A stretch of DNA of 64,000 nt from Pseudomonadota bacterium (GCA_041694745.1 JBGFSD010000060.1:10812-74811), one strand, 5' to 3'; positions 31,840 to 37,524 are shown, numbered from the stretch's first letter. The notes: generated by a model not told the origin, from the letters alone. Made by a program: numbers and translations.

Positions 31840-32817
31840 GTGACCATGAGTTCGCCGAAATACACTTTGATCTCGAACCCCTGGTTCGTGCCGCCCGAAA
31901 ACTATGGCAACGCTCTCCCGGCCCTGCCCTCACAGGCACAGTTCCCGAACCAGCATTTCTCCGAATTGCAGGTCGAGTTCGACGATAAGACGCGCGCGTG
32001 CTGGGCGTTTATGAAGCCGAACGGCCGGCCGAGCTACACGCCGGGCCTCCTGCGCGATCTCGACACGCTGCAACAGGCGATCAAGAAAGAGAGCATGGAG
32101 GCGCGCGCGGCGGGAGAAATGCCCGTGCAGTATTTCGTGCTCGCGTCGCGCATTCCCGGCATCTTCAATCTCGGCGGCGACCTTACGCTGCTCGCGCGTC
32201 ACATCCGCGCGCAGGACCGGCACGGGCTGATGGCCTATGCGCGGGCCTGCATCGACGTGCTGCACAACAACGCCGTCGGCCTCGACGTGCCGTTAATGAC
32301 GGTCGCGCTGGTGCAGGGCGACGCGCTCGGCGGCGGGTTCGAATCCGCGCTGGCCTGCGACTTCGTCGTCGCGGAGCGGCATGCGAAGTTCGGATTCCCC
32401 GAGATTCTTTTCAATCTTTTCCCCGGCATGGGCGCTTTCAGTCTGTTGAGCCGCAGACTCGATGCCGCGCGCGCCGAACGCATGATCCTGTCCGGCAAGG
32501 TTTATGAGGCTGAAGAGCTCTACGAGATGGGGCTGATCAACATGCTCGCCGCTCCCGGACAGGGAGAGGCGATGTTGCGCGACTATCTCGCGAGCCGCGG
32601 CCGGCGCTTCACGTCGCAATGCGCGGTTTACGCGGCGCGGCGCAAGGCACAGCCGCTGCCGTTCGAGGAACTGCGCGACATCATCGAGATCTGGGTCGAA
32701 ACCGCGCTCCGGCTTCAGGAGATCGACCTGCGCAAGATGGAGCGCCTGGTTGCGGCGCAGGACCGGCGCAGGAGTGCCGGCGGCAGCCTGCGCCCGGTGG
32801 CCAAAAACGAAGCCTAG
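31840..32817 (+). CDS. rpfF: RpfF-like crotonase-family DSF (cis-2-enoic fatty acid signal) synthase
   Basis: 325 aa (GTG 31840 or ATG 31846). Segments collinear with Xanthomonas RpfF as I recall it: IFNLGGDL, ALVQGDALGGGFESALAC, FGFPEILFNLFPGMGAFS (both catalytic Glu contexts kept), and IIEIWVETALRLQEIDLRKMERLVAAQDRR. Confidence 0.75.
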   Translation: MTMSSPKYTLISNPWFVPPENYGNALPALPSQAQFPNQHFSELQVEFDDKTRACWAFMKPNGRPSYTPGLLRDLDTLQQAIKKESMEARAAGEMPVQYFVLASRIPGIFNLGGDLTLLARHIRAQDRHGLMAYARACIDVLHNNAVGLDVPLMTVALVQGDALGGGFESALACDFVVAERHAKFGFPEILFNLFPGMGAFSLLSRRLDAARAERMILSGKVYEAEELYEMGLINMLAAPGQGEAMLRDYLASRGRRFTSQCAVYAARRKAQPLPFEELRDIIEIWVETALRLQEIDLRKMERLVAAQDRRRSAGGSLRPVAKNEA

Positions 32818-35379: not shown

Positions 35380-37524
35380 TCACGCCGTTCGCGCCAGCAA
35401 ATTCTGCTGGTTGAACAGGAAAGCGAAATCCTCCGCCGGCACCGGCGGGCTGAAATAGAACCCCTGCACCTCGTCGCAACCTTCGTTGCGGACGAAGGCG
35501 AGCTGCTCCGCGGTTTCGACGCCTTCGGCCATGATCTTCAGATTCAGGCTGTGGCCGAGATTGATGATCGCACGGACGATGGCGGCATCGTTCGGATCCG
35601 TATTGACGTTGCGGATGAAGCCCTGATCGATCTTCAGGCGGTCGACCGGCAGGGTCTTCACATAAGAGAGCGAGGAATAGCCGACGCCGAAATCGTCGAT
35701 CGAGAAGGTGACGCCTTTTTCCTGCAGGAACCGGACGTCGCTGGCGGCCGATTCCGGGTTCTGCATGAGAATGCTTTCGGTGAGCTCGAGCTCCAGCGCC
35801 CGCGGATCGAGGCCGGTTTTCTCCAGCACATCGAGCACATGCTGGCGGATATCCTGCTTGCGAAACTGGACCGGCGACAGGTTCACCGCGATCCGGAACT
35901 GGCCGTGTTGCTTTGTCCAGATTTTCGCCTGCTGGCAGGCCTCGAACAGCACCCACTCGTTGATCGGCACGACGAGGCCGTTTTCCTCGGCGAGCGGCAG
36001 AAATTCCGCCGGCCGCACGAGGCCGGAACCCGGACGGCGCCAGCGCAGGAGCGCTTCCGCGCCGATAATGCGGCCGGTGCGCAGATCGATCTGCGGCTGG
36101 TAGTAGAGCAGGAACTGCTTCTTCGCGAGCGCCTGACGCAGGTCGCTCTCGAGCACGATGGCCTCGCGCGCGTTGGTGTGCATGTCGGAGGCGAACACGC
36201 GCCAGGCGTTCCGGCCTTCGGCCTTGGCCTGATACATCGCAAGATCGGCATTCTTCAGCAGAACATCGACGTCGACGCCGTCGGTCGGATGCACGGTGAT
36301 GCCGACGCTCGCGGTGGTGTTGATCTCCTGACCGTCCAGTTCGAAGGGTTGATCCAGCGTCTTGATGATCTTTTCGGCGAGCGTTACCGCGTCTTCGGTG
36401 CGTGAGATTTCGGTCTGCAGGATCGCAAATTCGTCGCCGCCGAGCCGCGCGACGATATCGCTCTCGCGGACCGCGTTGCACAGACGCTGCGCCACCGCCT
36501 TGAGCAGCTGGTCGCCCTGGTGATGGCCCAGCACGTCGTTGACGCCCTTGAAACGGTCGAGGTCGAGCAGCAGCAGCGCGAACTGCTTGTCGCCGCGGCG
36601 CGTGCGCGCGATCTGCTTGCGGACGCTGTCGTGGAAGAAGGTGCGGTTCGGCAGACCCGTGAGCGGATCGTGATGCGCAAGATGATGGAGATGCTCTTCG
36701 GCCTGCTTGCGCTCCGTGATATTGAGCGAGGTCGTCAGCACGTTGATGACCTTGCCGGCGCGATCGCGAAGCGGCGATTTCGTGGTCAGGAAAACGTGAC
36801 GGTTGCCGGCGCGGTCGACGATCTCTTCCTCGTAGCTCGGCAGACCCTTGCCGTTCTCGAATACGACGCGGTCGAGCCCGGCGCTTTGCGGTCCGAAGTT
36901 GGAGCCGAAGATCTCGGCGGCGGTCTTGCCGCTCGCCTGCGCCGCATCGACGCCGTAGAAACTCGCGGTAAAGGCGTTCAGAAACACGCAGCGCCCGTCC
37001 CGGTCGGTCGCGGAAATCAGCGCGGGAACGGTGTCGATGACCTGGGCCAGACGCTCGCGGCTGTCGCGCAGCACTTCCTTGCGGAAGCGCTCAGAGTCCA
37101 TCAGTTCGCGCTCGAGCTCGGTGGCGCGGCTCTTGATGACGAGCTGCTGCTTGCGAAGCTGCAAAAGATTGCGTGCGCGGGTCAGAAACTCGTGGTGGTC
37201 GACCGGGCTTTGCAGAAAGTCGGTGGCGCCGGCTTCGAGAGCGTTGATCCGGTGCGAGCGCTCCTCGTACACGGTAATCACGATCGTCGGGATGTCCGCG
37301 CATTCGGGCAGTTGCCGGAAGCGGCGCACAAACTCGGCACCGTCCATGCTCGGCATCTTGTAGTCGGTGACGACCAGATCGGGCGTGTTATCCTTCAGCC
37401 ACGCAAGCGCTTCCACGGGATCGCCGAACGAGCGAACGGCCACGCCTTCTTCGATCGAAGTGGCGAGCTTCGCAAAGATGTTCCGGTTCGTAATCCGGTC
37501 ATCGACGATGACGATCAGCGACAT
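35380..37524 (-). CDS. response regulator with PAS, GGDEF and EAL domains (c-di-GMP turnover)
   Basis: Internal ATG at 37524 (MSLIVIVDD...). The REC acceptor is in LVVTDYKMP. A coiled coil and PAS domain are followed by GGDEF (RLGGDEFAIL) and EAL (GAEALLRW, DDFGVGYSSL). It ends 10 nt upstream of the rpfC-like gene, so the two likely form an operon. Confidence 0.85.
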   Translation of the reverse strand: MSLIVIVDDRITNRNIFAKLATSIEEGVAVRSFGDPVEALAWLKDNTPDLVVTDYKMPSMDGAEFVRRFRQLPECADIPTIVITVYEERSHRINALEAGATDFLQSPVDHHEFLTRARNLLQLRKQQLVIKSRATELERELMDSERFRKEVLRDSRERLAQVIDTVPALISATDRDGRCVFLNAFTASFYGVDAAQASGKTAAEIFGSNFGPQSAGLDRVVFENGKGLPSYEEEIVDRAGNRHVFLTTKSPLRDRAGKVINVLTTSLNITERKQAEEHLHHLAHHDPLTGLPNRTFFHDSVRKQIARTRRGDKQFALLLLDLDRFKGVNDVLGHHQGDQLLKAVAQRLCNAVRESDIVARLGGDEFAILQTEISRTEDAVTLAEKIIKTLDQPFELDGQEINTTASVGITVHPTDGVDVDVLLKNADLAMYQAKAEGRNAWRVFASDMHTNAREAIVLESDLRQALAKKQFLLYYQPQIDLRTGRIIGAEALLRWRRPGSGLVRPAEFLPLAEENGLVVPINEWVLFEACQQAKIWTKQHGQFRIAVNLSPVQFRKQDIRQHVLDVLEKTGLDPRALELELTESILMQNPESAASDVRFLQEKGVTFSIDDFGVGYSSLSYVKTLPVDRLKIDQGFIRNVNTDPNDAAIVRAIINLGHSLNLKIMAEGVETAEQLAFVRNEGCDEVQGFYFSPPVPAEDFAFLFNQQNLLARTA

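Follow-up and report, generated by a model that had tools for sequence, protein, structure and literature searches.

Signalling by diffusible signal factor (DSF) fatty acids has, to our knowledge, been studied almost exclusively in xanthomonads, in Burkholderia and its relatives, and in Pseudomonas. Alphaproteobacteria are known chiefly for signalling by acyl-homoserine lactones. A 2015 review recognised only two core routes of DSF perception, via RpfC/RpfG and via RpfR (PMC4504480). According to the same review, rpfG(H)C and rpfF are convergent in Xanthomonas, and PA1396 of Pseudomonas aeruginosa detects foreign DSF via an RpfC-like input domain (PMC4504480), while a KEGG-based survey merely mentions RpfC-RpfG orthologues in alpha-proteobacteria (PMC8895600). 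Here, we describe three adjoining genes, encoding a crotonase, a hybrid sensor histidine kinase and a response regulator, in a 64,000-nucleotide stretch of DNA from a Pseudomonadota bacterium (GCA_041694745.1, JBGFSD010000060.1:10812-74811; the whole stretch is called the window below). The trio probably constitutes a complete module of the Xanthomonas rpfF/rpfC/rpfG type for cell-cell signalling by the DSF family, in which PAS-GGDEF-EAL has taken the place of the HD-GYP domain of RpfG; sequence, fold and the conservation of synteny all support this reading.

The three open reading frames (ORFs; Table 1) are real genes and not the chance ORFs of a GC-rich genome. A preliminary description of the window, made from the sequence alone, had quoted characteristic motifs for each of them as well as an overlap of the two convergent stop codons in the tetranucleotide CTAG (32814-32817), and all of these were found in the sequence or its translations: TAG at 32815-32817 ends the crotonase, and the complement of 32814-32816 provides the stop of the kinase. 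The same description had given the crotonase 325 aa, for which the frame from the GTG codon does exist, but the likelier start is the ATG at 31846, yielding the 323-aa protein that is annotated, with identical sequence and the same neighbours, on 21 publicly available metagenome contigs. On the opposite strand, the regulator gene, whose open frame extends on to 37620, lies upstream of the kinase gene. Because only 10 bp separate the regulator stop from the kinase start and a strong terminator-like hairpin sets the pair apart from the preceding ABC-transporter operon, the two form a transcription unit of their own. No sigma-70-like promoter was found across 31300-37900, and neither Rfam (at gathering thresholds) nor a tRNA scan gave a match in the window. 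The nearest named genomes are uncultured Xanthobacteraceae/Hyphomicrobiales metagenome-assembled genomes at 84-86% identity.

Sequence and modelled fold both assign the crotonase to the DSF-synthase (RpfF) family. Its translation contains NLGGDL, ALVQGDALGGGFESAL, FPEILFNLFPGMGAFS and EIWVETA...LRKMERLVAAQ, segments that had been taken as specific to RpfF and not as those of an ordinary enoyl-CoA hydratase, and the assignment of the protein to RpfF held up when it was compared with described families and structures. Against NCBIfam NF006452 it scores 362.6 bits (cut-off 177), with the next family at 78 bits. A PDB sequence search returns RpfF of Xanthomonas campestris (Xcc) and RpfF-1 of Stenotrophomonas maltophilia with 183 bits each, followed by Cronobacter RpfF and Burkholderia cenocepacia DfsA with 169 bits each, and then, after a gap of about 100 bits, the next crotonase (70.6 bits) and P. 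aeruginosa DspI (53.6 bits). With an AlphaFold model of the crotonase (pTM 0.76; residues 1-33 disordered) as query, Foldseek ranks 1-12 are occupied by all four solved DSF synthases (TMt 0.85-0.89; root-mean-square deviation (rmsd) 2.5-2.9 Å), whereas the next tier has an E-value of about 1e-14 and an rmsd of 13-16 Å for most chains. The Burkholderia/Cronobacter enzymes (DfsA), for instance, are 36% identical to it, with a TMt of 0.85-0.87. Glu168 and Glu188 align with the catalytic residues E141 and E161 of Xcc RpfF and are invariant in 15 homologues. The residues that we take to form the acyl pocket of Xcc RpfF (G85, L136, G137, G138, M170, W258 and L276, a numbering that agrees with the 3m6m alignment) all recur identically in the window enzyme, as G112, L163, G164, G165, M197, W285 and L303, and, like the two glutamates, do not vary among the homologues compared. 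In a neighbour-joining tree rooted on the FadB-like hydratase of the window, the crotonase falls into an alphaproteobacterial clade within the RpfF family and has as its neighbours RpfF proteins paired with HD-GYP regulators, the FadB-like hydratase being a distant outgroup.

By its sequence, the kinase is of the RpfC type, as had been proposed, and combines a membrane input domain with the full HisKA-HATPase-REC-HPt relay. Pfam recognises HisKA, HATPase_c, Response_reg and Hpt (the domains of both operon proteins have E-values from 7e-6 to 3e-75), and the predicted phospho-sites His204, Asp631 and His785 are all present. The RpfC input domain has no model in Pfam or NCBIfam; a HMMER scan with kinase residues 1-185 retrieved 1985 representative homologues, and N-terminal fragments of close kinase homologues carry the label RpfC at JGI. 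For a direct comparison, two xanthomonad-type rpf clusters (L081 and L082) were reached through RpfC-REC fragments, starting from the Xcc receiver 3m6m_D, and the assembly frameshifts of L081 were mended by three-frame reading. The RpfC receiver of L081 is 74% identical to that of Xcc, and its gene order, lysS-rpfG-rpfC-rpfF-rpfB, is the xanthomonad one. The input domains of the window kinase and of L081 RpfC are 40% identical over 102 aa (E 3e-23) and, once the frameshifts are repaired, align colinearly along the whole domain, with LWRPA..DPRRV against LYRPGVSVPRRV and VGNGMRFG against FGNGFRFG, the latter at residues 121-128 of the window kinase. In the AlphaFold model (pLDDT 80.5), helices span residues 26-49, 56-78, 84-104, 112-127 kinked into 129-149, and 157-207, which enters the kinase stalk. 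The five transmembrane segments of the preliminary description are therefore plausible, not certain, as five spans result if the kinked helix 112-149 is counted once.

The stretch directly before the first membrane helix corresponds to the part of Xcc RpfC in which R15, D17, S18, E19 and Q22 are essential for DSF binding, S18A and Q22A each abolishing sensing (PMC5391125). L081 has RQDSEHGQ at this place, the consensus of the alphaproteobacterial family is RPD[ST]EHE[MQ], and the clade of the window has RPDGEHEM (RPDGEHE being residues 22-28 of the window kinase). Three of the five Xcc essentials (R, D and E) are thus kept in the window, and the family consensus matches four or five.

The regulator is best read, from its sequence, as an RpfG-type receiver and linker to which a swapped output, a generic and apparently bifunctional module for cyclic di-GMP (c-di-GMP), has been attached. 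Pfam finds Response_reg, PAS_4, GGDEF and EAL, and the motif positions bear out the earlier statement that both output signatures are intact: GGDEF stands at residue 362 with the I-site RESD five residues upstream, and the EAL catalytic set is complete (EALLR 490, N548, ELTE 580, DDFGVG 610, K631, EGVE 667 and QGF 687). The receiver keeps the acidic pocket (D8 and D9), the phospho-acceptor Asp54 and Thr84. Together with the linker, it is 48% identical over 141 aa to the RpfG-type receiver of L081; in phmmer comparisons it reaches 120 bits against the L081 RpfG receiver, and 167 and 151 bits against the receivers of two REC-HD-GYP regulators from related loci (L066 and L076, respectively). In the PDB, PleD is its best match (89.6 bits; next 54). 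Because the HD-GYP domain is replaced by PAS-GGDEF-EAL, the regulator is not itself a member of RpfG, in whose place it probably works.

The preliminary description had called the regulator RpfR-like and seen two known designs combined in the locus. This is true of the domain architecture, but not of the origin of the PAS and GGDEF-EAL parts, nor of the N-terminus, which is a receiver and not an RpfF-interaction domain. RpfR ancestry was rejected on the strength of sequence searches: a PDB sequence search with the PAS domain finds no RpfR chain, only BvgS and two others (E > 1e-5), and the best PDB matches of GGDEF-EAL are 5m3c (MucR, 431 bits) and 4rnh (MorA, 412 bits).

At least 593 relatives of the crotonase came up in a scan of GTDB with one genome per species, and the locus counts given here refer to the best 80 of these, nearly all of which are alphaproteobacterial. 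Synteny of the three genes is well conserved among them. An RpfC-type kinase is present in 65 of the 80 loci and convergent with the synthase gene in 62 of these 65 (median gap 46.5 bp), and 63 loci have a partner regulator directly upstream of the kinase. The output of this partner is of the GGDEF/EAL type in 52 loci (both motifs intact in 44); six partners are REC-PAS-HisKA-HATPase proteins, three consist of REC-PAS only, and two, one from a gamma- and one from a zetaproteobacterium, are REC-HD-GYP proteins. The PAS domain (38-62% identity) is kept in most partners irrespective of their output and is lacking in the two with HD-GYP. Comparison of these sequences indicates that the partner output was swapped during evolution, and the finding of one orthologous receiver with alternative outputs is strong evidence that this receiver is the cognate partner of the kinase.

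RpfF and RpfC with a GGDEF/EAL-type partner hence form a third DSF arrangement that is conserved and widespread across many families of Alphaproteobacteria, with plant-associated, marine and clinical genera among its carriers. Cultured carriers of kinase and partner are found among Agaricicola, Gluconacetobacter, Stappia, Inquilinus, Pseudovibrio, Aureimonas, Microvirga, Ancylobacter, Rhizobium and Roseomonas species, as well as in two of three Methylopila species, the third (Methylopila sp. Yamaguchi, L004) having the synthase gene alone. Inquilinus limosus DSM 16000, Gluconacetobacter liquefaciens DSM 5603 and Pseudovibrio denitrificans JCM 12308 are among the cultured strains that have the trio. 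Nor does the window locus stand out within its class: the arrangement is the standard one in many alphaproteobacterial families, and the window locus is an ordinary member of a widespread variant of a known DSF system.

Some of the related loci deserve mention in their own right. The REC-PAS(-PAS)-HisKA-HATPase partners (L005, L027, L034, L035, L041 and L047), whose kinases tend to have the full RPDSEHEQ motif, would make for a kinase-to-kinase cascade below a DSF-type sensor. In L004, L008, L025, L030, L031, L036, L039, L050 and L073, neither an RpfC-type kinase nor a partner regulator lies within 10 kb of the RpfF-family gene, and in L025 and L030 the convergent neighbour of this gene resembles an acetyl-CoA synthetase. 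Three loci labelled Terriglobia (L008), Mycobacterium sp. KBS0706 (L013) and Thermoplasmata archaeon (L062) look alphaproteobacterial and are probably mis-binned or mislabelled.

If the trio works as a DSF module, the crotonase would act like RpfF, i.e. dehydrate a 3-hydroxyacyl-acyl carrier protein, cleave the thioester and free a cis-2-unsaturated fatty acid, which would be sensed by the short N-terminal segment and the membrane helices of the kinase. Autophosphorylation of the kinase at His204 would then feed a relay via Asp631 and His785 to Asp54 of the regulator, which would shift its balance between diguanylate cyclase and phosphodiesterase activity and thereby change cellular c-di-GMP; the PAS domain of the regulator may supply a second input. 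Product chemistry, ligand binding, specificity between kinase and regulator, the sign of the c-di-GMP change and targets such as the Tad pilus are the parts of this scheme that we infer.

Several findings weigh against assigning the trio to DSF signalling of the Xanthomonas type. The narrow xanthomonad RpfF equivalog NF053515 scores the crotonase with 215.6 bits, short of its cut-off of 550. The validated Cronobacter synthase of the Burkholderia-type signal BDSF likewise stays below 550 with this model (185 bits) and reaches 399 bits with NF006452, and S. maltophilia RpfF-1 scores 568 and 406 bits, respectively; NF006452 therefore represents the broad DSF-synthase family, while the NF053515 cut-off only sets xanthomonad orthologues apart. 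The reference for RpfC and RpfG was the frameshifted metagenomic cluster L081 and not Xcc itself. In the sensor motif, the window clade has Gly for Xcc Ser18 and Met for Gln22. In the receiver, Ser/Thr-Pro takes the place of Lys-Pro in 59 of the 63 partner regulators (Ser106-Pro in the window), whereas Lys or Arg is kept in the HD-GYP partners and Lys in xanthomonad-type RpfG, and phosphorylation-driven switching may be atypical in a receiver that is devoid of this conserved Lys. Moreover, no RpfB-type ligase adjoins the trio; at a distance of about 8 kb, a beta-oxidation cluster includes a FadD-like gene whose product could, by analogy, take part in RpfB-like signal turnover. The sensor changes to Gly and Met, the Ser106-Pro receiver and an output with dual potential, which could be a cyclase, a phosphodiesterase or both, call for caution in any simple transfer from Xcc.

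Among the competing explanations, the most credible one, improbable as we consider it, keeps the kinase and the regulator as a working c-di-GMP switch but does without quorum sensing through a cis-2 fatty acid that the cell produces itself. The RpfF-like enzyme would then make a different or non-diffusible acyl product, e.g. for membrane or lipid remodelling, and the kinase would respond to fatty acids from outside or to the condition of the membrane. Such a scenario would sit well with the alteration of two of the five Xcc DSF-sensing essentials in the window clade, with about ten related loci that have the synthase gene and neither kinase nor regulator nearby, with the fatty-acid uptake and beta-oxidation neighbourhood at 37.8-52 kb, and with the precedent of PA1396, whose RpfC-like input senses foreign DSF (PMC4504480). 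Yet the enzyme retains every catalytic and pocket residue of RpfF, and the pairing of synthase and kinase in 62 of 65 loci is hard to explain without a link between product and sensor. That the crotonase is instead an ordinary enoyl-CoA hydratase of beta-oxidation beside an unrelated two-component system is strongly disfavoured and of negligible probability: the generic ECH_1 and ECH_2 matches in Pfam and the beta-oxidation genes within 10 kb are outweighed by the 100-bit gap between the RpfF matches and all other crotonases, the RpfF-specific fold match, the conserved pairing with an RpfC-type kinase across many families and the distant position of the true, FadB-like hydratase of the window.

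Doubt may also attach to the link between kinase and regulator. The regulator might not be driven mainly by phosphotransfer from the kinase, its receiver being a pseudo-receiver or an atypical, Lys-less one and its PAS domain the true sensor, which perhaps binds the fatty acid directly, in the manner of RpfR or RpfS; under this view, the kinase acts elsewhere, e.g. through a receiver that binds and inhibits the synthase as in RpfC. We regard this as quite unlikely, more so than the lack of a self-made signal. The presence of Ser or Thr at the position of the conserved Lys, seen in 59 of 63 partner receivers, would be compatible with it, as would the constancy of a REC-PAS core below varying outputs and the fact that the receiver of the kinase is most similar to the RpfC receiver crystallised with RpfF (3m6m). 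Speaking for phosphotransfer, D8, D9, Asp54 and Thr84 are conserved, receiver and linker have their nearest counterparts among RpfG-type receivers, which take phosphate from RpfC, and only 10 bp separate the regulator and kinase genes within their operon; in addition, the PAS domain is devoid of sequence similarity to that of RpfR.

On balance, we hold to a DSF module in which a sensor relay like that of RpfC would drive an enzyme able to make or destroy c-di-GMP. In the open-access literature searched, no paper describes or tests an alphaproteobacterial RpfF/RpfC system with the architecture of the trio, which agrees with the preliminary description, whose author knew of no characterised DSF system of this kind in Bradyrhizobiaceae-like bacteria; a Bradyrhizobium paper concerns a FadD/RpfB homologue only, and automated annotation already labels homologues as "DSF synthase" and "RpfC". 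Should the proposed function be true, fatty-acid quorum sensing would extend to a further, major class of bacteria, with culturable strains on hand for direct tests. The loci would also allow two-component rewiring to be studied in a series supplied by nature, with HD-GYP, GGDEF-EAL, a kinase or no output attached to one and the same orthologous receiver. A bolder proposal, which we put forward tentatively and rate below even chances, is that Alphaproteobacteria possess a third core DSF pathway in which RpfF and RpfC are coupled to a conserved, Lys-less REC-PAS adaptor with an interchangeable output (a bifunctional GGDEF-EAL in most lineages, otherwise a second kinase or none), the PAS domain adding a further checkpoint inside the cell, perhaps for the fatty acid itself. 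Quorum sensing by cis-2 fatty acids would in that case be widespread in the class, e.g. in Acetobacteraceae, Rhizobiales, Inquilinus and Pseudovibrio.

Table 1. Coordinates of the trio, its domains and neighbouring features in the window
Feature	Position	Strand	Remarks and evidence
Crotonase (RpfF-family DSF synthase homologue)	31840-32817	+	325 aa from GTG 31840
Crotonase, likely start	31846-32817	+	ATG 31846; 323 aa; gene call shared by 21 public contigs
RpfC-type hybrid sensor histidine kinase	32814-35369	-	851 aa; Pfam, motifs, RpfC homology
Kinase, membrane input domain	34815-35369	-	Residues 1-185; about five membrane-spanning helices; contains FGNGFRFG; RpfC homology, AlphaFold
Kinase, sensor motif RPDGEHEM	35283-35306	-	Residues 22-29, directly before first membrane helix; counterpart of Xcc RpfC DSF-binding residues 15-22
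Kinase, catalytic core	34110-34790	-	HisKA 34593-34790 (E 1.9e-20), HATPase_c 34110-34451 (E 3.8e-25); Pfam; H, N, G1 and G2 boxes found
Kinase, internal receiver	33285-33623	-	Asp631; best PDB match RpfC REC 3m6m_D, 95.1 bits
Kinase, C-terminal HPt	32910-33116	-	His785, HAMRSGAANIG; Pfam Hpt E 7.3e-6, 26.6 bits (cut-off 24.6)
Response regulator REC-PAS-GGDEF-EAL	35380-37524	-	714 aa; Pfam; paired with kinase in 63 loci
Regulator, RpfG-type receiver	37177-37515	-	Asp54; conserved Lys replaced by Ser106; phmmer; DFLQSP motif
Regulator, PAS	36703-37035	-	Pfam PAS_4, E 1.1e-15
Regulator, tandem GGDEF and EAL	35443-36678	-	GGDEF 36208-36678 (E 4.3e-51), EAL 35443-36144 (E 2.9e-75); Pfam
Palindrome GGTTAAT-GCAT-ATTAACC, candidate operator	31663-31680 (context 31655-31690)		About 170 bp upstream of synthase gene; unique in window
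Terminator-like hairpin, strong	37766-37793	-	12-bp stem and T tract; closes upstream ABC-transporter operon
FadB-like	43573-45795		
FadD-like acyl-CoA ligase	45612-47504		
Thiolase	47509-48696		
Acyl-CoA dehydrogenases	to 52334		

On the side of the synthase gene, the trio is preceded by the Tad genes cpaB, cpaC, cpaE, cpaF, tadB and tadC (23922-31376), with no flp pilin and no cpaA between cpaB and the synthase gene. The preliminary description had connected the trio with this pilus locus. The adjacency as such was confirmed, but it is conserved in only 3 of the 80 loci, those of the closest relatives L001, L002 and L033, and there is therefore no comparative support for a functional link; a conserved link to the Tad pilus was dropped as a candidate. 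Just upstream of cpaB, about 140 bp (31377-31520) are strongly conserved in the closest relatives, e.g. CGAGAACGT.TTCTTGTTGC and GCGCATTTGATTTATAATGAAGCGCAACTGAAGC.

Two further elements precede the synthase gene. The palindrome listed in Table 1 would have 0.04 chance matches in the window, and its core (GGTATGGTTAATGC..TTAACCA) shows no variation between the window sequence and those of L001, L002 and L033. It was rejected as a CtrA box, as the spacing is TTAA-N6-TTAAC and not N7. A 39-codon upstream ORF (MIAYGGGPDAAIFG...; 31724-31843, plus strand), annotated as a gene on public contigs, has its TGA stop 2 bp ahead of the crotonase ATG. Compared with L002, its first ~14 codons are conserved with mostly third-position changes, its C-terminus is variable or truncated in L001 and L033, and it is absent from the other 77 of the 80 loci. 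Judging from its sequence, it may be a leader peptide.

Beyond the regulator gene, the region from 37821 to 52334 comprises a branched-chain-type ABC transporter (37.8-42.6 kb) followed by the beta-oxidation cluster. At 52000-56000 lies a patch of low GC content (0.54-0.57 vs about 0.63 elsewhere), which holds an IS1595-family transposase (54411-55355, minus strand) and two ORFs without a Pfam match.

Of the closest described systems, X. campestris RpfF/RpfC/RpfG has much in common with the window trio: the synthase family, the multi-helix RpfC-type input, the HisKA-HATPase-REC-HPt relay, the RpfG-type receiver with its linker and a c-di-GMP output are all shared, and in both cases an operon of regulator and kinase is convergent with the synthase gene. 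The two differ in that Xanthomonas RpfG is an HD-GYP phosphodiesterase, whereas the window output is a potentially bifunctional PAS-GGDEF-EAL module. Furthermore, the window has no rpfH and no adjoining rpfB, its sensor carries Gly for Ser18 and Met for Gln22, its receiver is without the conserved Lys, and its synthase is extended at the N-terminus by about 35 disordered residues. Trio and orientation are also found in non-xanthomonad rpfF-rpfC-rpfG clusters (Methylobacillus, Thiobacillus, Leptospirillum and Methylophaga, as well as L066 from a member of the Sedimenticolaceae and L076 from the Zetaproteobacteria); these, in contrast to the window, have retained the HD-GYP output and the Lys/Arg-Pro of the receiver.

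The RpfF (DfsA)-RpfR system of Burkholderia and Cronobacter has in common with the window the synthase family, a PAS-GGDEF-EAL end on the receptor side and a synthase gene convergent with the receptor gene. Yet RpfR, a one-component receptor, is soluble, its N-terminal domain interacts with RpfF and its PAS domain binds fatty acids, while in the window a membrane kinase would do the sensing and a receiver stands in place of the interaction domain. The window PAS domain, moreover, has no sequence similarity to that of RpfR, its GGDEF-EAL part is MucR/MorA-like, and the PAS-GGDEF-EAL architecture itself is very common. P. aeruginosa offers two partial parallels. PA1396/PA1397 similarly combine a kinase with an RpfC-like membrane input and a regulator other than HD-GYP, but PA1396 has no HPt and no adjoining synthase, and PA1397 is a DNA-binding regulator. 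MucR and MorA, to which the output module is closest among solved structures, have both catalytic motifs intact, as does the window regulator, but they are membrane-anchored proteins and not the receiver-controlled partners of a DSF sensor.

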